The translations under genes and the position numbers were made by a program. A stretch of 63,081 nt of DNA, the filler included, from Collodictyon triciliatum (Eukaryota), in NCBI GenBank assembly GCA_043381765.1. It is 10 parts of 10 records of this genome, joined end to end, with 100 filler letters (N's around TTAATTAATTAA, not from the genome) between each part and the next. Parts side by side here need not be neighbours in the genome. Positions count along the whole stretch, not along the records: positions 56,878 to 63,081 come from JBHJMP010004639.1; 9 more parts are not named here. One strand, 5' to 3'. The notes beneath the pieces were generated by a model. It made no database searches, had not been told where the DNA came from, and saw only the letters and a program-made list of their open reading frames with translations. Positions within the stretch are counted from its first letter, which is position 1, and each line of letters opens with the position of its first letter. This document shows, piece by piece, positions 1,081 through 63,081 of the stretch.

Positions 1081-1170
1081 TACATTTACAATACTTTTTT
1101 TTTGTGAAAAAAACGCAGCTTAAAAACTATTCAAAATCATAGATTAACTAAACAAGAATTTGCACGCACA

Positions 1171-1623
1171 ATGGCACGCACGTTAACTAGACAAGAACAG
1201 CACGCCGACGACACTACAACCCGCACGTTGACCGGAGAAGAGCTAGCAAGACTCAACTACCTGTGTTTCATTGAATGGGGAGAAAACCTAGACGGCGTGC
1301 GACAGATGGTTACAATTGCAAGGCGCTTACGCAAAAGCACTCATAAAAACTACATGAAGAGAAAAGAGAAAAAGAAAGCGTCTTCTTCACAGTTTGTGTT
1401 TGTCGACCCCGACGGAGTCCAGCATAAAATGACGCCCCTGGTTGATTACCCGGTGACCCCCGTTGTCGATTACTCAAGCGCCTCTGCATCGTCAATCAAA
1501 ACTAGTTCATCTGAGGGTTCCCCCCGTGAAGCCGCTGAACGTGTTCGCAAATACCTGGTTACACCTGACCCTGCACCCTTCTATCCGCCTTCCCCTCCCC
1601 ATTTCTGCCCTACAGACGAATAA
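1171..1623 (+). CDS. Conserved hypothetical viral protein (homolog of 59875-60189)
   Basis: TGEELARLNYLCFIEWGENLDGVRQMV...YMKRKEKKK aligns with TVEELSLFNSFCLREFFMPLDSVRTMV...YKRRTLKKK, at the same syntenic position. Confidence 0.75.
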   Translation: MARTLTRQEQHADDTTTRTLTGEELARLNYLCFIEWGENLDGVRQMVTIARRLRKSTHKNYMKRKEKKKASSSQFVFVDPDGVQHKMTPLVDYPVTPVVDYSSASASSIKTSSSEGSPREAAERVRKYLVTPDPAPFYPPSPPHFCPTDE

Positions 1624-1661
1624 ATTATGTCTCATTTCTCATTTTATTCTGTCAACACTGG

Positions 1662-3983
1662 TCAACACTGGTCACAGTCATCAAGAAGATGTTTCTTCTT
1701 TAAATGTTCTTTGACATGTTTGTCGTCAAACACGTACTTTCTGCTTTGATTTTTTTTAATTCCTATCCTTTTCAACTCTTGTCCAAAATATTGGATTGTC
1801 CATATATCTTTACGTCCTGCTCTATTCATGACATCTCTGAACAGATCATAAACTTGTGTGGGTGTATGAGGCGTAACATATAAGGCAGCAAATCTATCAT
1901 CTGGGCCAACAAGCACATAATCTTCATATGTCATTAGTAAGAACTGGTCTATTTGTGTAATTTGTAATTGTATCTGTTGTTTCCAAAGTTCTTTTTCCTT
2001 TTGTTTACCCACGACATAACTTTCGCTGTTCCAAGTATTATCATACTTTGTAAACAAATATCTACAGAATGTCAATACGTGATCTTTATCATTAATAGCA
2101 TTCTTTAAAAACTGTTGGTTTTCCTCAGGCATCTTTTCTTCTTTACATTGCACAACCATGTATCTTCGATTGCTATCAGACATATTAAAAACTGATACGT
2201 TGTTTGTATTACAACATATGTGGACATAGTTGTTGGTCGTGTACTTGCCAAGACCTTTCTTGTGAATAACTATGTCGTTAGCGACTAAAGCATCTTTCAT
2301 AACATCAGTAAACTGAACAGCATCTTTGCGTTGCCCCTCCTCTAGCAACACAAATACTTTGTTTTCTATTAGATCGTTAAATTCACCGAATAACTCGGCC
2401 ATCTTGCTCGACTTTACCCCACACAATTTACCAATGATTTTATCTATAAACAAGTCCTGAGTAATAAATGATTTGCCGATACCCTCTGTTTCGCTATAGA
2501 AAACAAGACAAGTATGAAAACGACCCATCTCATGAGGTGCAAACAATAAATGAGCAAACCATTGTATAACATAAGCATAAACGTCAGAATCATTGTTACA
2601 CAATTGATTGTACAGATGGTCTGTAATCCAACTCTTATTGTAAAATTCGCTAGTCTCTTCATCTGTAAGTCTTACCTTTATGTCTCCATGCTTTTGTATT
2701 TCATAACCTCTGAACATATTGTATGTTTGAGGATACACAGATTGATCTAAATCTATGGGTAAATCTGGGCGCATTACTAGTTTACTGACTATTCGTTTAG
2801 CATCATCTCTTTTCAAATCATCAATAAAGTCAACAATACAACCTTTTCCGATCTTGTAATAGTAATGTCCGTATTGTATTTTGGCTTCGCTTTGTGTATA
2901 TGTGTGTAAAGTACCATCATCGTTGATTCTAATGAATTTACCATTCATGATAAAATGGTCTTTTTCGTATATTTCCTTGATATAGCTGTAAGCATAACGT
3001 CCTTCTTTTATCCCAACATGTTCACGTAATTCGGTAAATGTGGCACTATCAAGGTATTCTAGAAATAAGCCAAACAGTGAACCTACTCCTAACTCGCTCT
3101 TGACTTTGTTTTGTTGAACATTTTCAATCACACTTTTCAGCTGATTAATTCTATCTTCAATAGTCGATTTGGAATTATCTGGCATTTGCTCGCAAATTCT
3201 CAACCATAACTTTGACAAATCACGTAAACCATTATTAACAATTATGTAACATACCTTTATCCATGTGTCATAGTCGTCTGGTATATATTTGAATAAGTCC
3301 CGGTCTAAAGCCATTCGGACTAAACATTCGCATGTCGCTCTTTCTTGGAATTTAGGAAAACTACTTCGATTCACAACTAGTTCTTCTATTTCTGAATCGA
3401 CTGTGTCAGATGTTTGTGGTTCTTTTCTTTTCTTTGACTTGTACTTTGCTATCAGAGGCGTAATGTCAAATTCCTGTACATCGTTGTATATCAACTTGTT
3501 TTGGCGTTCCCATATATTTTTTGTTTTGAATATCACATCAATGTCTGGGTATCCTTCGTCTAAAACTTTTGTGCCCTCCCATTGCGGATTCCAGTTAGCT
3601 GGCTTCTTTATGTACATGTGAATCCCTTTTGTATTACCTGGTGTCCAACACATATCATCTGTGAAACTAGCTATTCCCAATTTTTCTCCGAGTTGGCTAG
3701 GAGTGTGTATGTTTTTGTCATCACAGTCAATACAAACAACATCCCAGTATTTCAAAAAGACTGAGTAACATCGTTGAACGGTTTTGCTTTCTTCTAATTT
3801 CATTTTGCGTTTCAACCTGGCAATCCAATTACCTGATACCCTGCTTTTTTCTTTCCATTCAGGTAAATCAACTAACGCACAGTTGTTTTTTTCTCTGACA
3901 GTTTCTTTTTGCCCATCAATCAGAACATAATGCGCATACGCATATGGCACTTGTTTTGTAGCTAAAAACTCTCCTATGTCCAT
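1662..3983 (-). CDS. AEP primase-polymerase + PriCT-2-like domain + D5-like SF3 helicase fusion (773 aa)
   Basis: AEP motifs VVCIDCDD (hhhDhD), GNTKGIHMYI (GhH) and DIDV. PriCT-2-like DYDTWIKVCYII. Helicase Walker A SETEGIGKS, Walker B VFVLLEE, motif C CNTNN, Arg finger SNRRYMV. Confidence 0.88.
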   Translation of the reverse strand: MDIGEFLATKQVPYAYAHYVLIDGQKETVREKNNCALVDLPEWKEKSRVSGNWIARLKRKMKLEESKTVQRCYSVFLKYWDVVCIDCDDKNIHTPSQLGEKLGIASFTDDMCWTPGNTKGIHMYIKKPANWNPQWEGTKVLDEGYPDIDVIFKTKNIWERQNKLIYNDVQEFDITPLIAKYKSKKRKEPQTSDTVDSEIEELVVNRSSFPKFQERATCECLVRMALDRDLFKYIPDDYDTWIKVCYIIVNNGLRDLSKLWLRICEQMPDNSKSTIEDRINQLKSVIENVQQNKVKSELGVGSLFGLFLEYLDSATFTELREHVGIKEGRYAYSYIKEIYEKDHFIMNGKFIRINDDGTLHTYTQSEAKIQYGHYYYKIGKGCIVDFIDDLKRDDAKRIVSKLVMRPDLPIDLDQSVYPQTYNMFRGYEIQKHGDIKVRLTDEETSEFYNKSWITDHLYNQLCNNDSDVYAYVIQWFAHLLFAPHEMGRFHTCLVFYSETEGIGKSFITQDLFIDKIIGKLCGVKSSKMAELFGEFNDLIENKVFVLLEEGQRKDAVQFTDVMKDALVANDIVIHKKGLGKYTTNNYVHICCNTNNVSVFNMSDSNRRYMVVQCKEEKMPEENQQFLKNAINDKDHVLTFCRYLFTKYDNTWNSESYVVGKQKEKELWKQQIQLQITQIDQFLLMTYEDYVLVGPDDRFAALYVTPHTPTQVYDLFRDVMNRAGRKDIWTIQYFGQELKRIGIKKNQSRKYVFDDKHVKEHLKKKHLLDDCDQC

Positions 3984-4165
3984 TCTTTTGTATAGACTTA
4001 ATTAATGTATATTGAACGCATTTCTTTAAACCAACAATTCTGAACGGTTGTGTAAGACTTTCTAGATTGTATGATGTTGAATAACTTTTTACCCGCCTCG
4101 CCTCAAGTCCAGTTCTTAATTCCAGAATTCGGTCCCTCCCTCCTTCTACTGAGTTATTAAAAGTA

Positions 4166-4305
4166 TTACATATCTTACATATCTTACATTTTATTCATTT
4201 AATAAATAAATAAATAAATATATACATATAAAGAAGTAAGGAATAGAGGGAGGAGAGCGAAAAAACGTTTTGCTAGATATTTTAAAAACCATGTAGGATA
4301 TGTAA
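4166..4305. promoter_or_regulatory. Putative replication origin of element A: inverted TTACATATC iterons around an AT-rich core
   Basis: TTACATATC-TTACATATC-TTACAT at 4166-4189, inverted copy ATGTAGGATATGTAA at 4291-4305, (AAAT)n core between. Lies upstream of the replicase gene. Function is inferred. Confidence 0.5.
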
Positions 4306-4309
4306 AACT

Positions 4310-4474
4310 TTAATCGAACAGGACCGTCACAGGCCCTTCTATAATGCCCCACATATCAGGACCTTTCTTTCTCCTACCCTTCTTTCTCAATGCCTCGAGT
4401 TTGTCAAAGTATTCTTTCAGTTCTTCAAAAGTAGCAAAGAGCATTTCACCCTCCATTGTATATAGTCGTAGCAT
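4310..4474 (-). CDS. 54-aa micro-protein conserved in both elements
   Basis: MLRLYTMEGEMLFATFEELKEYFDKLEALRKKGRRKKGPDMWGIIEGPVTVLFD*. Same length, position and terminal motifs as 57135-57299. Confidence 0.8.
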   Translation of the reverse strand: MLRLYTMEGEMLFATFEELKEYFDKLEALRKKGRRKKGPDMWGIIEGPVTVLFD

Positions 4475-4490
4475 ATCTAAGACTAGATAT

Positions 4491-5213
4491 TTAAAAAAGG
4501 ATTTCTTCCGAAAAGTTCTTGTAAGCTTTGATTCTGCGGGGTACCATCAGGTTTACATATAGAAAGCAATACGGATCTGCTGTAGCGAAATCAAAAACCT
4601 GGTCAAAGAGTTTCTGATCGAGATTGGTCATTTCATTGAGGGCTTCCCGTTCGTGTTTATTGTCGGTGTAAAAAGCAACGAGGTGGGAGGCGTTTTGTCG
4701 TACCTTGGGGTTGAATAACCTGATGGCATGCCCCACTACGATCATTGATAGTCTGAAATGACGGTGCTGTAACATTTTCTTGAGCAGGGTCTTACTAGGG
4801 CGTTCGAAAGCGGTGCCGAGGTCGTCGACCACCAGTAAGTACGCATTGTCCTTGAACTCGGGGTCACTGGTAATGTCTTTTGTGACTTGTTCAAAGATTT
4901 CCTCGTTAAAGTCCTCATACATGCGGCTTTTGTGAAATTTGACACCCTCGTAGCTTGAGTCATGAATTTCTCCTCCGGAAATGTTTGAAGAGCAGAAATA
5001 TACCTTGTCGAATATCTGGTGATACATTTCTCGCTTACCCAGCAAATTACTGATCAAGGTTGTTTTGCCGCTAGCGACTTTCGCACTTATAAGCATCCAG
5101 AAGGGTCTATCACTCTTTGCGTCCGGCAATATTTCTAGAATGACTTCCCGTTTGTTTTTCTTGGCTGTCTTTAATGGAGCAACCTCAATATTACTTACTT
5201 GCTTGCTTTCCAT
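4491..5213 (-). CDS. A32/FtsK-HerA-like virion genome-packaging ATPase
   Basis: Walker A AKVASGKT, Walker B LLVVDD, and the QHRHFRLSMIVVGH and RQNASH motifs typical of Polinton/virophage/NCLDV packaging ATPases. Confidence 0.9.
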   Translation of the reverse strand: MESKQVSNIEVAPLKTAKKNKREVILEILPDAKSDRPFWMLISAKVASGKTTLISNLLGKREMYHQIFDKVYFCSSNISGGEIHDSSYEGVKFHKSRMYEDFNEEIFEQVTKDITSDPEFKDNAYLLVVDDLGTAFERPSKTLLKKMLQHRHFRLSMIVVGHAIRLFNPKVRQNASHLVAFYTDNKHEREALNEMTNLDQKLFDQVFDFATADPYCFLYVNLMVPRRIKAYKNFSEEILF

Positions 5214-5219
5214 ACTTAT

Positions 5220-5549
5220 CTAACGAAATAAAAGATCATTGTCGTACGAAAGTTCCCGCACTTGAGCCTTGTCGACTGTTTCCTTTATTCTGCGCTTCTC
5301 GATTTTGCGGGCCTCTTCTTTTGTCAGATATTGTTTGATCAAGGACACGTCGTGCTGTAACGAAGAATAGTCGTGAATGGGTTTTTTGACGGCCTCGTAT
5401 TTCTTGACCGTCTGAACGATTTCCTTGTTCTTCTTCTTGGCTTCTGTCGCTTTGGGTTGAATCTTGGCAAGGTGGGCTCTCTGCTTTTCTGATACTATGC
5501 GTTTCTTTTTTGGTTTCTCTATGGTATCTATATTTTCGGGGTCGCTCAT
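5220..5549 (-). CDS. Lysine-rich basic protein (possible DNA-binding/core protein)
   Basis: KPKKKRIVSEKQRAHLAK... basic helical protein, 6 nt upstream of the ATPase start. Confidence 0.6.
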   Translation of the reverse strand: MSDPENIDTIEKPKKKRIVSEKQRAHLAKIQPKATEAKKKNKEIVQTVKKYEAVKKPIHDYSSLQHDVSLIKQYLTKEEARKIEKRRIKETVDKAQVRELSYDNDLLFR

Positions 5550-5581
5550 ACAACCACAGAGAAATAATTTCTGGCAAGAGT

Positions 5582-6219
5582 ATGGATAAAGCTTTCTACA
5601 TTTATGTTGATAGTGCCAACCGAGAAAGCGGAAGTATCGCAGACTTTAATTTCGCAACAACCCAAAACAGATATGTGTCGAGTAAAGCAAAAATTGGGCT
5701 AGAGTCTATCCAAATACCCAATGCTGTACACAACGTCACATCCGCCAACAACTCACTAGCTTTTCTGTGTCAGGTCGGACAAGACAGCCCTGTTTCATAC
5801 AATGTTTCACTAGAAACTGGTTTGTTAACTATCCAAGAAATCGTCAGTGACATCCGAACAAAAATGAACGCAGCAACCAATTCCCAGTCAGCCGCATTAG
5901 CTGTTTCTGTGTCGTATCTTAGTGGCAAGCAAAAGATAGCAATCAAAGGAGACGGTCCGAGTATTTCAATTCAACTATTTGTGAATAGTAGTACATGTAG
6001 AGAGCTCATAGGACTGACAGCAAATCTCACATTCAACACGTCGTTTGTAGAGCTACAGAATACAGTCAATATTCGACCTTTTGATTATGTGTACCTGGTG
6101 TCCCCGAACATTCAGAGTTCGAGCTTTGCCAGCAATATAGGCGGCAATGGCATCATCGCAAAAATACCGCTGAGTCTTGGGGCGAGATATGCGAGTTATT
6201 ACGAGGTCAATGACAATAT
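5582..6219 (+). CDS. Minor capsid (penton-like) protein, 3'-truncated
   Basis: MDKAFYIYVDSANRESGS..FNF...IGLESIQIPNAVHNVTSANNSL...YVYLVSPNI...IIAKIPL matches the DSxxR / IPNxxxNV...NN pattern of PLV/NCLDV minor capsid proteins. Likely start is ATG 5582, not GTG/TTG 5510. Confidence 0.75.
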
Positions 6220-6319: not shown

Positions 6320-6845
6320 CATTTTTTTGTACCACCCAAGCGTAAAAAATTTTGCTTCATTATTCACACAACTCACGTTTTACATCTCGTAACGGAAAGT
6401 CCAAATTTATTGTATAGATAAAGGGATAAAATAAAAAAAACAAAAAGAAAGTCGTCGATGTGTCGACCTTGCCAAAAAAAATAAAAAAAAAATAAAAAAA
6501 AAAACCCGTCGACCTACTGACCTTGACCTGTGGTGACAAAAGTGTCATGATTTGGAAATGTAGAATTCCCGATATCAGGTAATGTAGGAATCCAGGAATT
6601 CTAAACATACAGGAATGTATGAAATCTGGGAATTCATGTGTAACTCCGACCGACTTCGCGGAAATAATGCACCACGCCGTGGTCTACGAAGCTTCTAGAA
6701 TAGACCACAGACCACAATGCACCACAAATCACGGGTATAAGTAAGTAGAGGATTCACGATTGAGAATTGTAACTTTGACTGTGAATTTTTAACAATTGTG
6801 TAACATAATCATAACAAACAATCATAGGTAATCAGTTACCAGTGG

Positions 6846-7235: not shown

Positions 7236-9834
7236 AATAAATGTATGTGTCACGTTTAGTAATAATATATGCAGTGATACAAATACAGCTGCTCAACTAT
7301 AATAAACTCACATAATTTATCACTTAAAATTCACAAGAAAAATTCATAAAAATTGAAGCTCTCTAATGTATAATATGGCTATAACCATATAACATTAGTC
7401 AAAAATATCAGCATAAATCAAATTATAGTACATATTTTAAGGCTTACAATCTTACATTTATTTCAAACTGTAGTGCCGAACCCACCCGAGTCATATTCAA
7501 TTCTAAAAAAAAAGTGTATAACAAAACCGCCTTCGTATCTGTCTTAGTATTTAATATTCTTTTGAGTTCTAATTAATGCATTTTAATAAATTCAAACACT
7601 GCATGGTCAAATATATTATTGCTTTTTTTATTTTAAGTTTACTTTGACAAGTTTTAACGAAAATGTGTTTAAAATACGACATAACATATTTCTTAATGGT
7701 CAAATAACTGCATAAAAGCTCAAATGTTTACGTTGCTACATGTAAACTTTCAGCAATCTCATTAATAAATTGAGTGAAAGCTGCAACGCCCCTGTCAAAT
7801 ACGTTTATACCCAAGCGGCAACATAGACTTTGAGAGATATCATATTTTTAAAATCTTTATCAATATCTTAAATATTTGTTCGCCTCATATGTTTGTGTAA
7901 TAAAAAAGTAAATCTCCTGTATCAAAAAAAACTAAAATATATTTTTTTCTTGTAAATATGATAACAAGTAAGTGTAGTTAGATACGTTATAATGAATTTA
8001 AAAAGGATTACCGGTGCAGGATATCATTTTATAAAATTGGATTATACGTCAAAGTATAAAATATTATTCGATATCATTTTGCGTCTCACAAAGTAAAAAT
8101 TACTTCATCACTCAACAATGAACCACGATGGTCTCTCGTAAATTGTATCTTTGGGTATAGTATACCGCTTCTGCCCACAGATATGTGAATTTCTTCTGTA
8201 TTACTGATGTCCTATTCCTATATTCTATTCAAGGAATTCTGATTTACCATAACTCCTTATGTACGCGCACATCGCAAGACCCTAGTACAGTTTACTTCCG
8301 AACATGAAAAAAATCCTTTATTAATTAATCATTCAGACTGACATGTACATAATAAACAGAGAAGGCATCAAGCCAGCAGTTCTGACATATCAAATAAAAT
8401 ACCCAGCAATAAATAACGTAGGAATCAACACCCACTACTTGTAGTCTCTTTAACATTTACCCATCCGTCGCACCAAACACCAAGAAGCTACAGCAAACAG
8501 CACAGGCCAAATCCAAACTTGAAGCTTCACACACTAATGACAGTCCGTGCAAGCAGGAGCACATGTTCCTTAAACCACAAACGCATATTCATACTCCGGG
8601 TTGAGCAAAGTCCACTGCTGGTTGTGCATGATTTCAATACCAAATAAACGGTCAAGCTTCAATCCCATCAATTCTTAATAACCCTGAATAGCTTAGTTTT
8701 TTGGCTCAGACACCCAGAAAGAAATGCAAGAGAAGGGACCCAGTGTTCCATTAAAAAATACGCCGTAAAGTTAAATATTATTTACAAATTATCTCAGATA
8801 CAGCGACATAAACTCGACAGGACCGATTTTGGAAGAAACAGCCAAGTGCGAACTTTCATCAGTGATGCAACCTTGTGCGCTCTTCATTCAGTCTCAAACA
8901 TGAACAGAAACCTAGCTAAAGCTCTTCTATTTCCAATAAAATAGTCTACGTGTAATAAAACTTAATCTCAACTATGCCTCTAATCAATACTCTTTGATAT
9001 TATGTTTCTGCTGTCTTTCTTTCCGGTCAATCAAATTAATACAACTATCGCGCCGAAACTATAAAAATCCTATCAATTACATCCAATCCGATAATCAGAC
9101 ATCGATTTCACTTCCCCGTCTGCAGCTTATTTATGTCCTATTATTAATACAAGTTTTACTATTCTAGTTTTCTGTCTAAAAACCATTTCAACATTCCAAT
9201 ACATCATTTATTAACTTATATATTGTACCACTTGTACTTTGCAAATTTTTTTTATTATTTACAATCTGTATCTAAAGACCAATTAAATAGCTATAGTCTA
9301 TACATGTTATTTTGCATAATATGTGTCCATTCACATTTATTTGCATTTATTTGCATAATTCTGAGAGTTTCTCATCATTTCTACTCTATCCACATCAATC
9401 TGCATATATTACCTTTAATCCACATCAATCAGCACGCCAATTGCCATATAATTGCACTCTATCCCATTGTTCCCATCTGCCTTCCACACCATGCACCCGA
9501 GTCTCTTGCTTTACCACCTTTGCTTCTTCACCTACTTCGATATGCTGCGCTTCTTCGCTAGTCATCCTCTCTGCCGCCTAAGTACCGTCTTGCGTCCCTT
9601 GTGTCCCTCCCGCGCCGCACCATCTGCTTCCATTTTCGGTAGTGACCGTTTGCCCTGTAATAACACCCCAACTACCTATACACACAGCACCCTTCTTTCC
9701 CGCTTACCCACCGCCACAAAAAAAAAAAAGAATCTGTCCAAACTACCTACCTTGCTCAGGTACCATACCTTTGGCTCCATCTAATACCACATAAGGCCCA
9801 TCTATGCCATATCCGGCCTTTCCACAGCACGTGC

Positions 9835-12691: not shown

Positions 12692-15600
12692 GTATTTAAA
12701 ATCGTGGCCCCGAAGAGAGAAGCCTTAAAGGAGGCAGAGGAAAAATTCCGCGTTACTATGGAGACTGTGGAAGCGAAAAAAAAGTTGCTGGAGGACGCAG
12801 AGACAAGAATTCAACAGCTAGTCGAAAAATACGATAATGCAATAACAAAGAAAAATGATCTCCAGTCCCAAGTTCAATCCGTTGAGAAAAAACTGGATCG
12901 TGCGCAGAGACTTATCAAAGGACTCGGGGGAGAAAAAGACAGATGGATGAAAGCCAGAGATCATCTTGCTACAACATATGAGCTGCTGGTTGGGGATGTG
13001 TTGGTATCTTCTGCTGTCATCGCATACTTGGGACCTTTTACCGCTACATATCGAAACTCAATAGTAGAGAACTGGGTCAAACTTGTTCGCAGCAAAAGAA
13101 TTCCATGCAATGAACACTTTAACTTTACAAACACGATAGGAGATTCTGTTCAGATTCGGCAGTGGAAACTGGACGGCCTTCCACCCGACCGCTTCTCGGT
13201 GGAAAACGGTATCATGGTTATGAAGACGGGAGGCAGGTGGCCTTTCATGATTGATCCTCAGGGACAAGCCTGCAAGTGGATTAAAAAGATGGAATCAGGG
13301 AGTCGCATAGATGTCATCCGACCAGCAGACAGTGATATTATGCGCCGACTGGAAAATGCAGTGCAGTTCGGTAATCCTGTATTGATTGAAAATCTGGGTG
13401 AAACAATCGACCCGCAACTCTACCCCATCATTATAAAGGCAACATTTCGACAGGGCGGCCAGCTGATGATAAACATCGGAGGAAGTGCCGTAATGTTTTC
13501 CCCATCCTTCCGTCTCTACCTGACTACGAAGCTTCCAAATCCCCATTACAAACCGGAAATTTGCTCCCGTGTCACACTGGTGAACTTTATGGTGACCCCG
13601 GAGGGGGTCCAGGACCAATTGCTGGGTATTGTTGTGGCCAAGGAGAGACATGAGCTGGAAGAAGAAAAAAACAGTCTTGTCGTCCAGAACGCAAAGTTTC
13701 AGAGTGAGTTGAAGAGAATAGAAGACCAAATATTGCGACTGCTTTCAGATGCAGAGAGCAACTTTCTGGAAGATGAAGTCTTGATTGAGACTTTGAACGC
13801 TTCCAAAATTACATCACAAGAGATTGCAGAGAAAATAGCATTGTCAGCTGAAACGGAAGCTAAGATTGATACGGCGCGTTTGAGCTACCAACCAGTGGCC
13901 ATTCGAGCGTCTCTTTTATACTTTTGTGTGGCTGATATGGCAAACTTGGAGCCCATGTACCAGTATTCTCTATCTTGGTTTGTAAACATATTTGTCAAGT
14001 CTATTTCTGCAGCTGAAGGATCTCAACACTTGCAGCAGAGATTGAAAAACTTGAGCAGTCACTTTATGTACTCGCTTTATCGCAATATCTGTCAATCGCT
14101 ATTCGAGAAAGATAAGCTGCTTTTTTCATTTTTAATGTCCACACGCATTGAACGAGAGCAAGGGCATATCAGTGGCGTTGAGTGGAGATACTTTCTAACT
14201 GGTGGCTCTTCTCTGGGTTCATCAAGTCAGCTGCGTCCGGCATCACTCTCCTGGCTCCCAGAAAACATCTGGCAAGAAATTGTGAACATTTCACACCTTC
14301 CAGCTTTCTCTGAGATAACCTATCAGCTGGCGTCGCAAGCAACAGTTTGGAAGTATTTCTATGAAAAGGCCGATCCACTGGTGACGCCGCTGCCCGAACC
14401 TTACAAGGATAAGCTGTCGTCGTTCCAGAGGCTATGTCTCTTGCGTGCTATGCGGCCGGACAAGGTGGTTCCTGCGTGCCAATCCTTTATTTCTGCAACC
14501 TTGGACGCCAAGTTCATCGAGCCTCCACCTTTTGACCTTCTGAAATCTTACAAAGATTGCGACAACAAGACACCCATTATATTCATTCTGTCGCCGGGAA
14601 TGGATCCGATGGAGGAGTTTATGAACTTGGCGTTGAAGCTTGGGTTCAGAGATAAAACAAGCACCATTTCTCTCGGACAAGGGCAAGGACCCATCGCTGA
14701 TCGAATGGTGCACGAGGGCTCGGACAAAGGCCGTTGGATTCTCTTACAGAACTGCCATTTGGCTACAAGCTGGATGCCAACATTGGAGCATATCACANNN
14801 NNNNNNNNNNNNNNNNNNNNNNNNNNNNNNNNNNNNNNNNNNNNNNNNNNNNNNNNNNNNNNNNNNNNNNNNNNNNNNNNNNNNNNNNNNNNNNNNNNNN
14901 NNNNNNNNNNNNNNNNNNNNNNNNNNNNNNNNNNNNNNNNNNNNNNNNNNNNNNNNNNNNNNNNNNNNNNNNNNNNNNNNNNNNNNNNNNNNNNNNNNNN
15001 NNNNNNNNNNNNNNNNNNNNNNNNNNNNNNNNNNNNNNNNNNNNNNNNNNNNNNNNNNNNNNNNNNNNNNNNNNNNNNNNNNNNNNNNNNNNNNNNNNNN
15101 NNNNNNNNNNNNNNNNNNNNNNNNNNNNNNNNNNNNNNNNNNNNNNNNNNNNNNNNNNNNNNNNNNNNNNNNNNNNNNNNNNNNNNNNNNNNNNNNNNNN
15201 NNNNNNNNNNNNNNNNNNNNNNNNNNNNNNNNNNNNNNNNNNNNNNNNNNNNNNNNNNNNNNNNNNNNNNNNNNNNNNNNNNNNNNNNNNNNNNNNNNNN
15301 NNNNNNNNNNNNNNNNNNNNNNNNNNNNNNNNNNNNNNNNNNNNNNNNNNNNNNNNNNNNNNNNNNNNNNNNNNNNNNNNNNNNNNNNNNNNNNNNNNNN
15401 NNNNNNNNNNNNNNNNNNNNNNNNNNNNNNNNNNNNNNNNNNNNNNNNNNNNNNNNNNNNNNNNNNNNNNNNNNNNNNNNNNNNNNNNNNNNNNNNNNNN
15501 NNNNNNNNNNNNNNNNNNNNNNNNNNNNNNNNNNNNNNNNNNNNNNNNNNNNNNNNNNNNNNNNNNNNNNNNNNNNNNNNNNNNNNNNNNNNNNNNNNNN

Positions 15601-16856
15601 NNNNNNNNNNNNNNNNNNNNNNNNNNNNNNNNNNNNNNNNNNNNNNNNNNNNNNNNNNNNNNNNNNNNNNNNNNNNNNNNNNNNNNNNNNNNNNNNNNNN
15701 NNNNNNNNNNNNNNNNNNNNNNNNNNNNNNNNNNNNNNNNNNNNNNNNNNNNNNNNNNNNNNNNNNNNNNNNNNNNNNNNNNNNCAACGACAAACCAGAG
15801 ATATGCGGTCTTCACGAAAACGCAGACATCACGTATGCCAGAAACGAAACTAGTCTCTTCGTCTCTTCTCTCTTGCTTATGCAACCGCGGTCGTCGGGAG
15901 ACCAAGACGGAGAATCTCAGGAATCTGTTCTGGAGAGGGTGTCTGCAGACATTCTGAGCCGTGTTCCGACACCTTTGGATGCAGAAGAGATTGCGAGACA
16001 GAGGCCAATCAGGCACGATGATTGCATGACCACGGTCCTTTTGCAGGAGGTGATGCGCTACAACACCCTTTTAACAAAAGTCCGCCTGTCGTTGGTGGAG
16101 CTTCAGAACGCGCTCAAAGGACTGGTGGTGATGTCTGTGGATTTGGAGATGATGGCATTCAGCCTGTTTGATGGCCAAGTGCCGAGCAACTGGGCAAGGA
16201 TTGCGTACGAATCTCGCAAGCCGCTCGCAGGGTGGGTTGCAGACCTGGTTTCTCGCATCAAGTTTGTTAAATCGTGGAGCGAAAAAGGCCCGCCCAGCGT
16301 CTTCTGGCTCTCCGGATTCTTTTATCCGCAAGCCTTCCTGACAGGTGAGGTTTCCCTCCGCTTCTTGTGTCCTCTTTGACACCTTGCCATTCCCCAACGC
16401 ACAGAGTCCCCTCTAAGCGCGCCATCAAACACCGTAGGCCAGCTCCAAAACCACGCGCGCAGACACGCAATTGCCATCGACCATGTGTCCTTCGACTTCA
16501 ACGTCATGCCGGGCCCTTGCAAGAGCGCAGCCACGAGCGGATGCTACATCGACGGGCTTTTCCTCGAAGGGGCGCAGTGGGATAACAACGCAGGGCGTCT
16601 GGCAGAGTCGAATCCCAAGGAGCTCTTTGTCAGCATGCCCATCATCTGGCTCAGCCCCTTCGACACAAGCAGACGCGCCCGCGACTCGGCCATGCGCTAT
16701 GCCTGCCCTGTGTACAAGACAAGCAAGCGCTCGGGCGTCCTGTCATCCACAGGCCATTCCACAAACTACGTCCTGACCATCGACCTCACCACCGTCAACC
16801 CTCCTGCGCACTGGGTCAAGCGGGGCGTCGCGCTGATTTGCCAGACAGACTTTTGA
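12692..16856 (+). CDS. Axonemal dynein heavy chain, C-terminal part (stalk, AAA5, AAA6, C-terminal domain); N gap 14798-15784; intron 16345-16437
   Basis: VAPKR, RWPFMIDPQGQA, RLYLTTKLPNPHY, ISLGQGQG, WILLQNCHLA, FWLSGFFYPQAFLT, YACPVYKT, HWVKRGVALICQ. Resembles inner-arm type heavy chains. Confidence 0.95.
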
Positions 16857-56600: not shown

Positions 56601-56878
56601 ATATATTATTCGCATTTTATCAATAGGAAGATGTCCGAGCCATCACCAAGCAGACGATCTGACGCCGCCAACCAGCAAGAATCTGGAGACCAGAAACAGA
56701 CAGAACTAACCCGAGAACCCGCATCGGTCGATGAGAAAATCCGCGGAGGCTTGATTCCAGCCGCATTTTATTCTGATNNNNNNNNNNNNNNNNNNNNNNN
56801 NNNNNNNNNNNNNNNNNNNNNTTAATTAATTAANNNNNNNNNNNNNNNNNNNNNNNNNNNNNNNNNNNNNNNNNNNNG

Positions 56879-57118
56879 CACGCGATTCGTTTGTTTAATC
56901 CGAAAATCCGGCAAAATGCAAGTCACCTGGTTGCGTTTTATACAGACAACAAACACGAACGGGAATCTCTAAACGAAATAACAAACCTCGATCAGAAACT
57001 CTTTGATGAAGTCTTTGATTTTGCTACAGCAGACCCCTATTGTTTTCTCTACGTTAATTTAATGGTTCCTCGTAGAATTAAGGCCTACAAAAACTTTACG
57101 GAAGAAATCCTTTATTAA
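56879..57118 (+). CDS. Packaging ATPase, C-terminal fragment
   Basis: 73 of 79 aa identical (hand count) to the C-terminus of 4491-5213. Confidence 0.92.
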   Translation, partial: HAIRLFNPKIRQNASHLVAFYTDNKHERESLNEITNLDQKLFDEVFDFATADPYCFLYVNLMVPRRIKAYKNFTEEILY

Positions 57119-57134
57119 TATCTAGTCTTAATAT

Positions 57135-57299
57135 ATGTTACGACTATATACTCCTAATTCTGAACAACATGTATTTTTGACTTTTGAGGAGGCCCAGCAG
57201 TTTCTTGACTCGCTCTTTACAAAAAAGAACAGGGTAGACAGGAAAAGAAAATCTCTTTACTCTATTCTTCGTGGCCCTGTTACAGTTGTTTTTGATTGA
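57135..57299 (+). CDS. 54-aa micro-protein (homolog of 4310-4474)
   Basis: MLRLYTPNSEQHVFLTFEEAQQFLDSLFTKKNRVDRKRKSLYSILRGPVTVVFD*. Confidence 0.8.
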   Translation: MLRLYTPNSEQHVFLTFEEAQQFLDSLFTKKNRVDRKRKSLYSILRGPVTVVFD

Positions 57300-57477
57300 A
57301 CGGAACACCTGGACACCTGGACACCCTCTTTTCAAACTTTTTAAAATTCTGGACCCTCGGCCTTTTTTAAAAAAAAAGGGGTAGGGTCGGTATGAATTAT
57401 TATTTTTAGGAGGTGTCCCAGTAAGGGTGTCCCTAGGGTGTTCTTAAAAAAATGAGACTGAAAAGAGTAAGGAAAAA
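57288..57477. repeat. ~190-bp direct repeat, copy 1 (putative origin with GGACACC iterons)
   Basis: Near-identical to 62251-62441; internally palindromic. Confidence 0.9.
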
Positions 57478-57569
57478 TTAATCAAGGAACACCCTATCCC
57501 ACCTCAAGAGATACCCTAAAATGCCCACTTAAAAACATTTGTCTATGAGTAAGTAAGAACAAAAGAAAA

Positions 57570-59849
57570 ATGGAACTCATTGAATCAATCGACCCCGTTA
57601 TCATTGACAAACTTCTGCAACAATCAGCAGAAAAAGTAGACAAAAAGACAAAGGGAAAGCTAAGTGTAATTAAACAGCGATTAGTTAATGGACAACTGAA
57701 AGTGAAATATGATTACTCAAAGCACTGCAGAAAAATTAAAGTTGGAAGATTCTATCCAGCGAGTATTTCTGTGGGAATGTTGGAAAAGCCCCTGCGTAAT
57801 TATCTGATGAAGGATAAATATGCTAGTCTTGATATTGTTAATTGCCATTATGCTCTGTCTTTAGAACTGGCAAAAAAATGGGACACACCTTATGAAGCTA
57901 TTGAGAAGTATGTCAAGAACCGTGACAGTATAATTGAAAGGACAATGGAGTTAACACAAAAGACTCGCAAAGAAGTTAAGAAGCTGTATCTGATGCTGGC
58001 TTTTAGCGGCAAAGTCCAGCCAATTGACCAGTTTGCTACTCAACTGCAATCAGAAATGAACATGCTCGCAGCTATGGCATATAGCAAATATCCAGAATGG
58101 CACAAACTCAAACTTCGCGAGTCAGACGAATGTCTAGCTGATCACGACAATCGCATTTATAGTTTGTTGGCATATGTGCTTCAAACAGAAGAAACTAAAA
58201 TCATGCAGGTAGTGATTGATGCCTTGGTGAATAAAGGTGAAGTCGAAGTTGGATTTTATAATTTTGATGGGCTGTTTGTTGATAAAGTTGGATACGAATC
58301 CGGCGCAGGAATAGAAGAAACAAATGGTGCAATGAGTCAATATGTTGAAGAACAAACAGGGTATAAAGTAGAATTTAGCTATGAACCTATTGAATCAACG
58401 TTTAAGCCTGATGAAGTTGCTACAACAGTTTCAATTGCAGAATTTGCAAAGACTCATTTTATGTTACGCGGTGACTTGTTTGTTGAGTACCCGGATGAAC
58501 CCACTCGCAAACCCGAACATATTAAGTCTGCTGGATCTTATTGTCAAGAATTTGGAGACAAGTACTGGCAAAAAGTTCAGAGAGTTTTGCCAAAAGAAAG
58601 ACGATTCATGTACTTTGATTTTTTGCCGTATGACGGATTTACAAACAAGTATAACCCAAAGGCCTATAACAATTTTAAGGGCTTTAAATTTGAAGAGTAC
58701 TTTCCTGAATTCAATGGATTGCAGTTGAAAGATTGGATTGGGTACTGCAATCGCATAGCTTCTTCTGTTACTGTTGATGATTATAGTGTCTGGAAAAATA
58801 GCATGACATATAAACAATTGTCAAAGTATCTTTGTGCTAGTAATGCTGTCTCAGAGAAATATGTCATACAATACTTGGCTAGAATATTGTATCATCCGAG
58901 TTATCGCATTGGCAAAATGATGATATTTAGAAACAACAGAGGAGGGACAGGCAAGACTGCTTTCTTTCACAAACTGTTTGTCCAGCAAATCATTGGAAAG
59001 CAATACGGCAGTACACACTCAAGTCTGTCTGAAATATTTGGAGACAAGAATATGAATATTCAGAACAAGTTACTTTGCATTCTGGAAGAAAGTGATGTTT
59101 CAAAAACTAAGACATTACAAGGAGACATTAAAGAAGCTGTCGATCGTGACGAAAATCACATTCGTATGCTTTACCACAATCCTTATCCTGTAAAGAATAC
59201 AGTCAATTACATTCTTAACACCAACAAAGAAATCGGGATTGTTTTTGAGCGAGACAATATGAGACGCTTCCCTGTGTTTGATGTGTTGGAGCATCGCCTG
59301 AGTCCCGGGGAAATCAAACAACTGACCCAGGAGTGTTATGACTCTGACTTTGTTAAAATTTTTACTAAGGTGTTAATGAACGAGTATGATCCTAATTTCA
59401 ACTTTAATGACTTTCCAAAAAGTGAGACTTGTGAAGTACTGGCAGAAACTAGCATGCATCCCGTGGAACAGTTTATTAAGTTCTTGTTTGTTGAATGGAA
59501 TGAATACATCTGGGACACGTATGAGCTGACGTTCAAATCACAGTATCAATGGCATAAAGAAAAGGACGCATCACCATTTAGTCACAGTGCCGATGAGATT
59601 TATGACATATACAAAATGTTCAGCGCCAAGAGACTCCCGAATCACAAAGTGTTGGAGTTTAAATCGTTTACCAACAATGCACACTGGACAACATTTAAAT
59701 CTACCTATGGGGTTACGTCAAAGAAAGGTAAGTATGAATGCGACTATAAACAAGTCCGTAAATTGTTGACAGAGAATAGCAATTTGAAAAATCACTTCAA
59801 TTCTGAAGGAATCGTGAGCAGCGCCAAGAGAGCCCGCACAAAAGAATAA
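57570..59849 (+). CDS. TVpol (PolA-related transposon-viral polymerase/primase) fused to a D5-like SF3 helicase (759 aa)
   Basis: GRFYP...LRNYL, motif A SLDIVNCH, motif B RKEVKKLYLMLAFSG, LQTEE, motif C FDGLFV. Helicase GGTGKT, LCILEE, LNTNK, NMRRFPV. Same architecture as Sputnik virophage V13. Confidence 0.85.
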   Translation: MELIESIDPVIIDKLLQQSAEKVDKKTKGKLSVIKQRLVNGQLKVKYDYSKHCRKIKVGRFYPASISVGMLEKPLRNYLMKDKYASLDIVNCHYALSLELAKKWDTPYEAIEKYVKNRDSIIERTMELTQKTRKEVKKLYLMLAFSGKVQPIDQFATQLQSEMNMLAAMAYSKYPEWHKLKLRESDECLADHDNRIYSLLAYVLQTEETKIMQVVIDALVNKGEVEVGFYNFDGLFVDKVGYESGAGIEETNGAMSQYVEEQTGYKVEFSYEPIESTFKPDEVATTVSIAEFAKTHFMLRGDLFVEYPDEPTRKPEHIKSAGSYCQEFGDKYWQKVQRVLPKERRFMYFDFLPYDGFTNKYNPKAYNNFKGFKFEEYFPEFNGLQLKDWIGYCNRIASSVTVDDYSVWKNSMTYKQLSKYLCASNAVSEKYVIQYLARILYHPSYRIGKMMIFRNNRGGTGKTAFFHKLFVQQIIGKQYGSTHSSLSEIFGDKNMNIQNKLLCILEESDVSKTKTLQGDIKEAVDRDENHIRMLYHNPYPVKNTVNYILNTNKEIGIVFERDNMRRFPVFDVLEHRLSPGEIKQLTQECYDSDFVKIFTKVLMNEYDPNFNFNDFPKSETCEVLAETSMHPVEQFIKFLFVEWNEYIWDTYELTFKSQYQWHKEKDASPFSHSADEIYDIYKMFSAKRLPNHKVLEFKSFTNNAHWTTFKSTYGVTSKKGKYECDYKQVRKLLTENSNLKNHFNSEGIVSSAKRARTKE

Positions 59850-59874
59850 AATGAATGGTGGTTATTCCCACAAT

Positions 59875-60189
59875 TTATTTTGAGTTTGTTGATATAGATT
59901 CACTAGAAGACATTCCAGTTGAATAAACTTTAGGAAAGCGATCTTCAAATTCTACATAGTCTGGAATATGGATGTCAATCACAGGGGGTGTTATAGGTCT
60001 TTCAATATTAGCTATGGCGTTCTTCTTTTTCAATGTGCGGCGTTTGTAACCTCGGGAATTTCTAGCTTTTGTTCTGAGCCCACATGACACCATTGTGCGC
60101 ACACTATCCAATGGCATAAAAAATTCTCGGAGACAAAACGAATTGAACAGGCTAAGTTCCTCTACAGTAAAATGGAAATCCATTATCAT
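59875..60189 (-). CDS. Conserved hypothetical viral protein (homolog of 1171-1623)
   Basis: Shared EEL..N..C..E...LD.VR.MV...Y..R..KKK pattern and synteny. Confidence 0.75.
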   Translation of the reverse strand: MIMDFHFTVEELSLFNSFCLREFFMPLDSVRTMVSCGLRTKARNSRGYKRRTLKKKNAIANIERPITPPVIDIHIPDYVEFEDRFPKVYSTGMSSSESISTNSK

Positions 60190-60256
60190 TACATTATTGT
60201 ATACAGATGTTTTTAAGTTGCGTTTTAATGATGAAAAATAAAATGTATGTTAATAT

Positions 60257-61618
60257 ATGAGCACTAGTGATAATTATAATGAAAAATTACAGAAACGTTA
60301 TAATGAACCTGGACAAGTGAATTCAATTGATGCATTGTATAGACATTTCAATAAGGAGATACCTCGAAGTTATATAGTTAGATGGATGAAGAAAAACCCG
60401 TATCAACAAATAAGCAAGCCAGCTTTTAAAAGTAAAGATGTTAATCCGTTTAATGTAACAGATCCTAGTTATGCACAGATCGATTTGATTTATACCAAAG
60501 GGTTGTATCCAGATAACTATGAGGGTAGTATGTTTAAGTATTTGATGGTGTGTGTTGTTTTGTTAACACGCAAAGTATTTATGTATCCATTGACTGAAAA
60601 GACTTTGGCAGAATCCAAGAAGGCCGTACTTAATTTTAAAAAAGACTATCCACCTTTGAAGGTTATCCAAAGTGATAACGGAACAGAGTTTAAGTTTGAC
60701 AAACAATTTCTTAAGGAAAACGGATTAAAGTCAGTAAAGAGTTCTGCATATAATCCAACAAGTCAGGCATATGTTGAGCGAATGAATAGTGTTGTAAAAA
60801 ATTCACTATACAAGTTACATCAAAAGACTGGTAAAGATGTATTGACAAAAGAAGTCTTAGAAAAAACAGCTGATAGTATAAATGACCAGCCTAATAGAAG
60901 CACTGGTGTAATTCCTAACAATGCTACTACAAAAGAAAACTTGGAAAAGTTAATAGAAGCAAATCAGAATAAACTAGAAAAAGCTAGCAAGAGTGAAAGA
61001 GACAATGTGTTAGAAGTTGGCACAAAAGTTAGAGTCAGTTTAACTAAAACCAATCTAACAACACAAGAAAGAAATAAGTTTAAGACACAAAAGAATTGGA
61101 TACCTAAATTTACTACAGAGCTTTTTATCATACACAAAGTAAATATTCATAAGGAGGGATTTAAAGCACCAACTTATGAATTGAAGGGAATGAAAGAAGA
61201 AGACCAGAAAATATTAAAGGGCAAACGCTTTTTACGCAGAGACCTACAACCCGTGGATAAAGACACAAAAGAATTCAAGCCTGTAGTTGATTTAATTAAA
61301 CGAGACACAGAGTCTAAACCAAGAGGTAGACCTAGATTAATCGAAGAGAAAGTAAAAGCACGCAAGGCTTGGAATATGCTGTGGATGAACGCAAAGAATT
61401 TTACAAACAGAACAGGGAAGTTTGATGTTGGAAAAAAAGAACGACAAGAAGAATTAATAAAGGCACAACCCAAAATTAAAAAGTTGTTTGATGCTTTTAT
61501 TCAGACTTATACGGATAGTCCTCCATTGACTACTCTGCAGAAAAAGAACTTTGAAAAGTTAAAGCGTGTGATAGCAGAGCCAATAGAAAAAAGACGGAAA
61601 CAAAGTGTAAAGAATTAA
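60257..61618 (+). CDS. rve (DDE) integrase of Polinton type with a C-terminal AT-hook-like motif
   Basis: QIDL, QSDNGTEF and YVERMN catalytic triad; LEVGTKVRV...FLRRDLQPV C-terminal domain; KPRGRPR. Confidence 0.93.
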   Translation: MSTSDNYNEKLQKRYNEPGQVNSIDALYRHFNKEIPRSYIVRWMKKNPYQQISKPAFKSKDVNPFNVTDPSYAQIDLIYTKGLYPDNYEGSMFKYLMVCVVLLTRKVFMYPLTEKTLAESKKAVLNFKKDYPPLKVIQSDNGTEFKFDKQFLKENGLKSVKSSAYNPTSQAYVERMNSVVKNSLYKLHQKTGKDVLTKEVLEKTADSINDQPNRSTGVIPNNATTKENLEKLIEANQNKLEKASKSERDNVLEVGTKVRVSLTKTNLTTQERNKFKTQKNWIPKFTTELFIIHKVNIHKEGFKAPTYELKGMKEEDQKILKGKRFLRRDLQPVDKDTKEFKPVVDLIKRDTESKPRGRPRLIEEKVKARKAWNMLWMNAKNFTNRTGKFDVGKKERQEELIKAQPKIKKLFDAFIQTYTDSPPLTTLQKKNFEKLKRVIAEPIEKRRKQSVKN

Positions 61619-62187
61619 CTCTGTTTTTTTGGCAGAACAAAGCGTGGTTTTTTTTTCAACTCTTTTTGTATTTCTTTGGTAAGCTTACCCAAAGCATCAG
61701 GGTCTTGCTCCAATTCTTTGGCTTCTTCTTTTTCTTTCTTTTTCATTGAGGACTCTGCCTCTGCGACTATCTTGCGTTTCTCTGCGCGCTTGGGTTCATT
61801 CTCTTTTACTTTGGCTAAACCCTTTTTCTTTTTCTCAAGGTTAGCTTCTTTTGATTGTCTGTATATATCACCGATGTCTTTGGTGTTATTTGTCCAAGTC
61901 TTTCCGTAGTTTGTCATTCCTAGGACTTTACCTTCCTGGTCTTTCCATAAAGCATTACCCACTTCATTCTGAACCATTGAAACAAATCCTTGGTTGATTT
62001 TAGCAGGGTACTCTTTGCCATTGTACGATCGTGCTTTCATTTCATACATAATGTAGTCTCCTTTTTCCAAGTCTTCATATTTGACTTTGGAAAAATCTTT
62101 ATTGTCTGTTGGCAGAGTTGAAGTCTTTTTGCCTTTGGCTTTGTCTTCTTCGGTAGGCGCGGACTTAGAAAATTTTCGGGGCGGCAT
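61615..62187 (-). CDS. Lysine-rich protein with a central beta-rich domain
   Basis: 190-aa ORF whose stop overlaps the integrase stop in a shared TTAA; YEDLEKGDYIMY is SH3/KOW-like. Confidence 0.7.
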   Translation of the reverse strand: MPPRKFSKSAPTEEDKAKGKKTSTLPTDNKDFSKVKYEDLEKGDYIMYEMKARSYNGKEYPAKINQGFVSMVQNEVGNALWKDQEGKVLGMTNYGKTWTNNTKDIGDIYRQSKEANLEKKKKGLAKVKENEPKRAEKRKIVAEAESSMKKKEKEEAKELEQDPDALGKLTKEIQKELKKKPRFVLPKKQS

Positions 62188-62250
62188 ATTCCAGTCAATA
62201 TAATTGTTAAGTATCTATAACGCAAAGTCTTTAATACAGCAATTACTTAA

Positions 62251-62441
62251 GTTTTTGATTGAACGGAACACCTGGACACCCGGACACCCTCTTTTCAAAC
62301 TTTTTAAAATTCTGGACCCTCGGCCTTTTTTAAAAAAAAAGGGGTAGGGTCGGTATGAATAATTATTTTTTAGGAGGTGTTCTAGTAAGGGTGTCCCTAG
62401 GGTGTTCTTAAAAAAATGAGACTGAGAGGAGTAAGGAAAAA
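62251..62441. repeat. ~190-bp direct repeat, copy 2 (subterminal)
   Basis: Near-identical to 57288-57477. Confidence 0.9.
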
Positions 62442-62468
62442 ATGGAAAAGGATCAAGTGGGTAGAAGT

Positions 62469-62558
62469 GGACGGCTAAGTCTTGGACGGCTAACCCTAAC
62501 CCTAACCCTAGGACGGCTAACCCTAACCCTAACCCTAGGACGGCTAACCCTAACCCTA
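62469..62558. repeat. GGACGG-punctuated telomere-like (CCCTAA) repeat array
   Basis: GGACGGCTAA(CCCTAA)2CCCTA twice (27 bp each), plus one 21-bp unit and one partial unit. Confidence 0.9.
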
Positions 62559-62645
62559 GACCACACACACGCTTCCATATATGGTATGAATAACCGGGAA
62601 AGGACAGTATATAAAGGGTTGAAAAAGCAGGGTTGAACCGCCGCC

Positions 62646-62688
62646 TGTGGTATTATCACCTATATAATATAGAGGTGATAATACCACA
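62646..62688. repeat. Perfect 16-bp inverted repeat TGTGGTATTATCACCT-N11-AGGTGATAATACCACA
   Basis: Directly visible. Confidence 0.9.
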
Positions 62689-63081
62689 ATTGCTGTGGAT
62701 TTTTTCTGTTTGCCAACGCTCGTTCGTTGGGCATATACTCATTTGATGCATATATTTTATTCGCGTAGGAGCTGTGCTTTTTTTCCTTTTTACTTTATTT
62801 CTTTTAGTTATAAAAGGGAGATAGGTTGTTTTTGAAACACAGCGACTTTTGTGAAAGGCGTGATGTTGAAGTGAACACAAGCAAATGAGGTGACCAAGCT
62901 TCCGGGATAAAAATTAGTTGAGATAACCCAGATGATTTACAGAGCAAAATAGTCGATCTTATTCCCACAAAACACAACGAAGAACACATTTCACACAGAA
63001 ATACGTGAGAGCTTGTCACCTGTTGGGAGTTCGATGTTTTTTTGTTGCCGAAGTTGAATATTAAATAGAGGTCTGCATTTT

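Follow-up and report, generated by a model that had tools for sequence, protein, structure and literature searches.

The virus-like contig and its duplicated unit

We analysed a stretch of 63,081 bases (the window) from the Collodictyon triciliatum assembly GCA_043381765.1, which consists of ten contigs of 6204-6250 bases each, linked by N44-TTAATTAATTAA-N44. The subject of this study is contig 10 (window 56878-63081, 6204 bp), which probably derives from a polinton-like virus (PLV) with a eukaryotic host and which we call element B, and in it a non-coding repeat of about 200 bp whose two direct copies stand on either side of a replicase and an integrase gene. A related virus-like fragment, element A, makes up contig 1 (window 1-6219) in the opposite orientation; by BLASTN the two share 69% nucleotide identity in their integrase genes (1115 columns) and 79% at the 3' ends of their ATPase genes (275 columns). 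Of the ATPase gene, contig 10 contains no more than the final 75 codons, and it has no capsid genes; contig A has the full ATPase gene (Pox_A32, E 1.3e-08; window 4491-5213, minus strand) and, at a possible place for a capsid gene, a 236-aa open reading frame (ORF) without a Pfam match. Contigs 2-9 have a eukaryotic look, with few long ORFs and many microsatellites toward the contig ends, and other contigs of the window code for an HMG-box protein and for a dynein heavy chain (AAA_9, E 4.8e-88); assuming that contig 10 shares its organism with them, the host of the PLV is a eukaryote. Positions are those of the window unless another contig is named.

A BLASTN comparison of contig 10 with itself aligns 57288-57477 with 62251-62441 (96.3% identity, 191 columns, E 2e-85), exactly the direct repeats, with starts 4963 bp apart, that an earlier reading of the sequence alone (the sequence-only reading) had noticed. 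That reading had also spoken of a few substitutions and an indel, and the MAFFT alignment counts six substitutions and one 1-nt indel over the 191-column span. A repeat search pairs 57288-57407 with 62251-62370 (120 nt, 98%; copy starts 4963-4964 apart) and 57403-57491 with 62367-62455 (89 nt, 89%), the repeat extending to 57491/62455 at lower identity, and to the left of the copies 88 bases show no likeness (MAFFT). Both copies have the same anatomy: three G[G/A]ACACC sites in direct orientation are followed by a core of 85 bp that contains a T6A9 palindrome, and this in turn by three sites in inverted orientation. All 12 arm sites, six per copy, match the consensus, with the GAACACC variant as the outermost site on either side of each copy. 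Just over half of the G[GA]ACACC matches of the 63-kb window (13 of 25) fall within the two 204-bp copies, and exact GGACACC occurs 14 times against 2.87 expected, a count that none of 100 shuffles reached. We conclude that the repeat is a genuine two-copy non-coding unit of the PLV, with the following parts:

57288-57491, no strand: copy 1, at the ancestral position between the small ORF and the replicase gene
57303-57325, plus: left arm of copy 1, GAACACC, GGACACC and GGACACC at 8-nt spacing
57326-57411, no strand: core of copy 1, imperfect palindrome GGACCCTCGGCCTTTTTT/AAAAAAAAAGGGGTAGGGTC
57412-57443, minus: right arm of copy 1, on the minus strand GGACACC, GGACACC and GAACACC
62251-62455, no strand: copy 2, derived, 64 nt upstream of the ORF190 start
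62266-62288 and 62376-62407: arms of copy 2

Genes in and around the bracket

The gene calls agree with the earlier statement that the repeat encloses a TVpol-helicase, a conserved ORF, an integrase and a basic ORF and no virion genes: between the copies lie the replicase, ORF104, the integrase and ORF190, and no capsid or packaging gene. Copy 1 overlaps a stop codon and ends shortly before the replicase, 79 nt before its ATG. The genes of contig 10 are:

56891-57118, plus: 3' end of the A32-type packaging ATPase, the contig beginning inside the gene; outside the bracket; 79% nucleotide identity to seg1 4458-4731
57135-57299, plus: small conserved ORF, 54 aa, which overlaps copy 1, its last four codons and stop making up the first 12 nt there
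57570-59849, plus: replicase, 759 aa, with a TVpol N-terminus, a superfamily 3 helicase (S3H) and a possible C-terminal winged helix
59875-60189, minus: ORF104, conserved, without a Pfam family; BLASTP match to ORF150 of A (window 1171-1623), E 2e-06
60257-61618, plus: rve-type integrase; Pfam rve, E 8.1e-06, 26.5 bits, below the gathering score of 32.6
61615-62187, minus: basic ORF190, transcribed away from copy 2, without a Pfam family

The structural model of the replicase is confident for residues 1-283 (predicted local distance difference test, pLDDT, by block mostly 80-95). Among the Foldseek matches listed for this N-terminal part (ranks 1-50) there are family A polymerases only, with 1kfd (Klenow) in first place at E 3.1e-04, and VIA-align superposes it on Aquifex Pol I (8jrb_B) with Z 12.3, a root-mean-square deviation of 4.0 and 250 aligned residues. 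The model thus confirms a predicted family A DNA polymerase fold. The helicase part is poorly modelled (pLDDT under 50), and here the Pfam matches (DUF5906, E 3.9e-12; VapE-like, 2.5e-07) point to a C-terminal S3H, which is 24% identical to the helicase part of the replicase of A (E 4e-21). Since TVpol is described as a polymerase I homologue fused to S3H (PMC4642659 and PMC12220804), the label TVpol-helicase given by the sequence-only reading holds. Further along, residues 628-735 give VIA-align matches to winged-helix domains of ORC/Cdc6, RFX and the P4 origin-binding domain 1ka8 (Z 5.0-5.9); all of these matches are weak, that to 1ka8 having Z 5.1. Searches of solved structures by sequence gave nothing useful for the replicase of B and a match in the helicase part only for that of A, and the ESM Atlas returned only unnamed viral clusters for the N-terminus. 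The integrase is 77% identical to that of A at the amino acid level, and its relatives P0001-P0005 and P0007 carry PF00665.

The unit in related elements

The design of the unit recurs in element A with a different sequence. In the non-coding DNA upstream of the A replicase (window 4130-4310), TTACATATC is repeated 2.7 times in direct orientation and once inverted 108 nt on, the whole being flanked by CCCTCCCTCC and GGGAGGAG. The replicase that follows (window 1662-3983) has an N-terminus unrelated to that of B and resembles it in the helicase part only. Homology between the two contigs covers the integrase, ORF104/150, the small ORF and the end of the ATPase gene; the small ORF of B matches its equivalent in A (window 4313-4459, minus strand) at E 2e-11 (BLASTP), and both terminate in GPVTV(V/L)FD*. 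Since the replicases and short repeats differ while these parts are homologous, the swapped block is the unit plus the replicase, about 57300-59860, and the two elements are separated by a recent replicase swap in otherwise syntenic neighbourhoods. Between A and B it was therefore a smaller block, and not the bracketed one as a whole, that was exchanged.

Searches with an alignment of integrases returned four metagenome contigs and seven distant IMG/VR contigs. L009 also has a unit of the same design, in which a core stands between four CCTAATTTA-type sites in direct and four in inverted orientation; some 60 nt separate it from the start of a D5_N/PriCT primase-helicase gene downstream. This unit is accompanied by a second copy, inverted and about 520 nt off (the pair at L009:5840-5960 and 6374-6473; L010 likewise). 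The L009 contig also encodes a minor capsid protein of the Sputnik V18/19 type. In the IMG/VR contig L007, which encodes a D5_N replicase and an rve integrase, there are six units of about 150 bp, 87-97% alike and in both orientations, each with a core between two direct and two inverted TTGCGGAA sites:

L007: 190-347, 4874-5031, 6195-6354, 10919-11076, 13276-13424 and 18528-18693

Each of the six follows an ORF of at least 100 aa, at a distance of 16-81 nt from its stop. One 8-mer, AATTCTGG, is shared by the A, B and L007 units; it was dropped because it is also found four times in the eight host contigs.

Two further contigs, L001 and L002, are A-like (85-88% nucleotide identity) and continue past the integrase and the basic ORF, where they align with ORF190 at 76-79% identity over 225-275 nt. 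The sequence-only reading had predicted a second array of this kind in A beyond the integrase. Contig A terminates within its integrase gene, and neither of the two A-like contigs L001 and L002 contains TTACATATC, although both may be of another replicase and short-repeat type. The most complete relative is L004, with an integrase that is 51% identical; between its capsid-side genes and its ATPase gene it has a region bounded by inverted repeats that contains a TTAGGG run. The contigs of the closest replicase relatives measure 17 kb (P0010), 11 kb (P0011) and 15.9 kb (P0017 and P0003). Single-query searches of IMG/VR with the replicase and the integrase found no relatives, nor did the replicase alignment in IMG/VR or the genome contigs or the integrase alignment in the genome contigs, and exact DNA patterns for the 38-nt core and the 27-nt array (see below) had no matches in IMG/VR.

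Origin and surroundings of copy 2

Copy 2 carries GTTTTTGATTGA, the tail of the small ORF, without the small ORF itself. Because the first 12 nt of both copies are the end of an ORF that is present only at copy 1, and because A has this ORF in synteny, with an analogous non-coding region after it, copy 1 is at the ancestral place and copy 2 is derived. At the left junction copy 2 has only 6 nt (GTTTTT) in common with relatives at that place, and both of its flanks are unique. The spot itself is hypervariable. L001 and L002 are 98.7% alike up to it (L001:2573-2984, L002:1907-2555), part 46 nt upstream of the basic ORF start with different small insertions, and converge again at a 41-bp tandem array at the contig ends, beyond the basic ORF; B and the contigs of metagenome runs X1 and X5 also diverge at the equivalent place, window 62256. 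From the junction sequences, copy 2 was probably placed by illegitimate recombination into this hypervariable spot upstream of the basic ORF.

Two further features lie to the right of copy 2:

62484-62558, plus: 27-bp array, 2.8 copies, unit GGACGGCTAACCCTAACCCTAACCCTA, with telomere-like CCCTAA
62646-62688, no strand: palindrome with 21-nt arms, 95% complementary, whose membership of the element is uncertain

The array contains five matches to CCCTAACCCTAA with up to one mismatch, against 0.17 expected. Telomere-like TTAGGG/CCCTAA runs occur in the non-coding DNA of B, L004 and L007; the run is firm in B and in L004 (L004:3640-3690, two exact dimers) and weak in L007 (L007:3444-3460, one match with a mismatch, equalled in 3 of 30 shuffles). 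In Halocafeteria, PLVs have been described near host telomeric repeats (10.64898/2026.07.28.741278). As to the palindrome, a contig of run X6 covers 62646-62688 alone, with foreign flanks on both sides (loose ends at 62645 and 62688), and the palindrome may be a repeat of its own.

Variants in metagenome runs

Words of contig 10 were found in freshwater and aquaculture metagenomes, and contigs from four runs of four studies (X1, X5, X6 and X7) were placed on contig 10; such contigs lose rare forms, so that the absence of a joint is weak evidence. The run contigs terminate at both copies, as a repeat would give, and no independent contig of the four runs bridges the junction of 62256 with copy 2. 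Copy 2 is polymorphic: X1 and X5 contigs match up to 62256 and depart there, continuing with TACGGCA... in its place, and one X1 contig joins 62256 to 62616 via 11 other letters, an allele without copy 2 and without the array. The sequence-only reading would have counted against itself a lack of the subterminal copy in related elements, and this was found in part, in the X1 allele. Another X1 joint, with 62566-62599 reversed beside 57306, hints through the opposite-strand joining of 57306 and 62566 at an inverted second copy in that strain.

The letters of the arms vary as well. A 132-nt contig of X5 has the core 62291-62372 between other flanks, GGATCAAGTC before it and inverted GACTTGATCC behind it, which shows turnover of the short repeats around a constant core. 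Another X5 contig, of 2610 nt, matches B only at 62415-62460 and continues with sequence unlike B at the 90% threshold; this suggests that the unit in X5 may be followed by a replicase gene that has diverged or is of another kind. One X6 joint goes back 4942 nt, from 62460 to 57519, and was considered as a circle junction; it has 16 foreign letters and extends past the homologous span, and was rejected in favour of a sequence variant of the copy-1 border. No X5 contig lies on 57499-59775 and none of X1 or X7 across most of copy 2, gaps that prove nothing.

Role of the unit

The reading that we favour, and to which we give an even chance, is that the unit is a cis-acting binding platform of a protein of the element, likeliest the replicase, and as such a putative origin, an operator or both. 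The design recurs beside the replicase gene in A, B and L009, in front of three different replicase N-termini, which points to a replicase-linked cis element. The TVpol-S3H replicase would bind the G[G/A]ACACC sites through its predicted C-terminal winged-helix domain, and the bound unit would serve as replication origin, as operator of the replicase, or as both. Copy 2 would be a later duplicate that landed beside the telomere-like array and, were both copies bound, they might act like ori and crr of phage P4, by analogy only. The sequence-only reading had called the repeat origin-like, a description that suits its dyad repeats, its T/A palindrome, its position upstream of the replicase and the parallels in A and L009; as a statement of function it is plausible yet unproven.

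Several observations weigh against a replicase-bound origin. The X6 contig with the joint from 62460 to 57519 combines right-arm letters of the X5 type (GACTTGATCC) with the 5' end of a replicase gene like that of B, at 17 differences in 292 nt, so that short repeats and replicase do not covary cleanly; a strict covariation of the short repeats with the replicase type, considered as a candidate rule, is ruled out by this contig. L004 has no direct repeat around replicase and integrase, and copy 2 occupies a spot where relatives have unrelated insertions and may be without function. The winged-helix scores of Z 5-5.9 are weak and within the range commonly seen. Folded as single-stranded DNA, the arms pair and the central palindrome pairs with a z-score of only -2.18, and the core is not the most A+T-rich 40-mer of contig 10. 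The six units of the same design in L007, all at gene boundaries, are too many for origins and better fit an explanation that does without an origin, in which the unit is a regulatory cassette of gene boundaries (a dyad operator, bidirectional promoter or hairpin terminator) and the two copies of B mark two regulated boundaries. The position of copy 1, on a stop codon and before the replicase ATG, and that of copy 2, 64 nt before the ATG of ORF190, would suit such a cassette. However, no convincing gene lies upstream of copy 2, the two copies face their nearest genes in opposite senses, and a unit beside the replicase gene start in each of A, B and L009 speaks for a replicase-linked role. We regard a cassette of this kind as unlikely, although worth keeping in mind. 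We are similarly doubtful of the second of two options offered by the sequence-only reading, that copy 2 lies within a terminal repeat region, with copy 1 at the inner boundary of a replicative-integrative end module. For it speak the precedent of Gezel-14T, with one direct-repeat copy in its terminal inverted repeat (TIR) and one just past its end module, and the short arrays drawn in such terminal repeats (both in bioRxiv 10.1101/2023.10.16.562556), since the 27-bp array of B directly follows copy 2, and also the 41-bp array in which L001 and L002 end beyond the basic ORF. On the other side, BLASTN finds no inverted copy of 62251-62645 anywhere in the window, which is without the other end of B, and the TTAGGG run of L004 is internal. 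Moreover, an X1 contig joins the basic-ORF side to 62616-62645, which indicates that the element or a shared locus continues past copy 2.

The other option was that recombination between the direct copies frees a 4.96-kb circle with unit, replicase and integrase, a transpoviron-like module that could be the vehicle of module exchange. The copies, in direct orientation and 96% identical across 191 bp, would permit such recombination, and a preprint (10.64898/2026.10.13.758929) has repeats around replication machinery and suggests autonomous mobility. Yet neither a circle joint nor a joint left by deletion to a single repeat is found among the contigs of X1, X5, X6 and X7, evidence that is weak by itself, and the difference between A and B is confined to the unit and the replicase while the integrase and ORF104 stay homologous. 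A circle as the vehicle of exchange is thus unsupported, the swapped block being smaller than the bracket, and we consider it improbable; nothing shows the 5-kb bracket excising or moving as a unit. A more elaborate version deserves the same low credence. In it the replicase would bind a bipartite origin comparable to ori and crr of P4, the direct copies would let the 5 kb loop out as a self-replicating, integrase-encoding circle, and the telomere-like repeats would recruit host telomere proteins. If it were true, a capsid-less replicon nested in a PLV would account for replication-integration modules hopping between morphogenetic modules, and the adjoining telomere-like repeats, which L004 also has, would keep or target the episome by recruiting host telomere proteins. 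That the unit is itself mobile, an element like a miniature inverted-repeat transposable element whose inverted ends are mobilised in trans by the rve integrase, is more improbable still. Its shortness, A+T-richness and inverted short repeats at the bounds fit, as do the six dispersed copies in both orientations in L007, whose genome encodes an rve integrase. The copies of B, however, remain alike for 15 nt past the left arm and for about 50 nt past the right one, a comparison of copy 2 with the X1 allele that lacks it shows no target-site duplication, and the X5 core with other arm letters is contrary to conserved transposon ends. Least credible of all is that copy 2 is an artefact of a chimeric or duplicated assembly join, which the sequence-only reading had named as a finding that would undo it. 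The source assembly is fragmented, with short contigs, and the junction of 62256 with copy 2 is not repeated among the contigs of the four runs. Nevertheless the copies have seven differences, the flanks of copy 2 are unique, and the 6 nt shared at its left junction are too short for a k-mer assembler to jump, so that an artefact is unlikely. In addition, the word depth of contigs with the unit is roughly double that of neighbouring contigs (in X1 19.9 against 9.6-11.7, in X5 55.9-60.6 against 34), depth not being the same as copy number. Attachment sites or terminal direct repeats of the whole element were rejected as candidates: the ATPase and the small ORF lie outside the bracket, in synteny with A, and there is no tRNA gene.

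Under the replicase-linked reading, a short unit of fixed design beside the replicase gene of three elements with three replicases is a concrete candidate for binding and replication assays. The duplicate copy, the replicase swap between A and B and the strain variants at the unit borders offer natural material on replication-module exchange, a question raised yet left open in the preprints 10.1101/2023.10.16.562556 and 10.64898/2026.10.13.758929.

Comparison with known systems

For origins in these elements, the literature search found nothing beyond the suggestion that terminal repeats might serve this function. It stands in the preprint on Gezel-14T, which proposes replicative end modules with terminal repeats as origin and integration substrate and describes a direct repeat of more than 300 bp in the TIR that recurs just downstream of the end module (bioRxiv 10.1101/2023.10.16.562556). 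By that account, Gezel-14T, of the Phaeocystis globosa virus virophage type, resembles B in being a PLV with a primase-helicase-type replicase next to a recombinase and with a direct repeat of a few hundred bp that brackets the module, one copy at its inner border; in B, too, replicase and recombinase are adjacent between two direct copies. It differs in having a tyrosine recombinase, a GIY-YIG nuclease and a repeat copy inside the TIR, whereas the integrase of B is of the rve type and B lacks a nuclease. In polisuviruses, repeats separate from the terminal repeats bracket the replication machinery, and autonomous mobility is proposed (10.64898/2026.10.13.758929). The repeats described there set the replication machinery apart from the morphogenetic module and, as between A and B, replicase classes are swapped among genomes that are otherwise much alike, but those genomes have two replicase classes and B has one replicase on contig 10. 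Both ideas of the sequence-only reading are already in print as hypotheses, and B is a further example with an rve integrase.

The arrangement in B also recalls phage P4 (NC_001609), in which the alpha gene is flanked by crr (4291-4590) and ori (9086-9809), both with type 1 repeats; a note in the record states that crr is needed in cis. Each has two repeat clusters, direct and inverted within about 120 bp and about 4.8 kb apart in P4, that flank a primase-helicase gene beside an integrase, and B shows this layout with six G[GA]ACACC sites per copy at two would-be cis sites 4963 bp apart flanking the replicase. The alpha protein binds the origin repeats via a winged helix, a C-terminal origin-binding domain (PMC4234260), to which the replicase of B has a weak predicted match. 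P4 differs in that it is a satellite phage of bacteria, its primase is of the Toprim type and its integrase a tyrosine integrase, and it has no sequence relation to B. Its alpha protein loops ori and crr. The origins of simian virus 40 and papillomaviruses, viruses with superfamily 3 helicases, have inverted clusters of initiator sites around a T/A tract, and oriP of Epstein-Barr virus has TTAGGGTTA nonamers, telomere-repeat motifs, beside its dyad element; neither has homology to B.

Further observations

In contig 10, ARAGORN predicts no tRNA genes and no Rfam family reaches its gathering score. Contig 3 contains a run of 987 N (window 14798-15784) within the dynein heavy chain ORF, which is a masked stretch.

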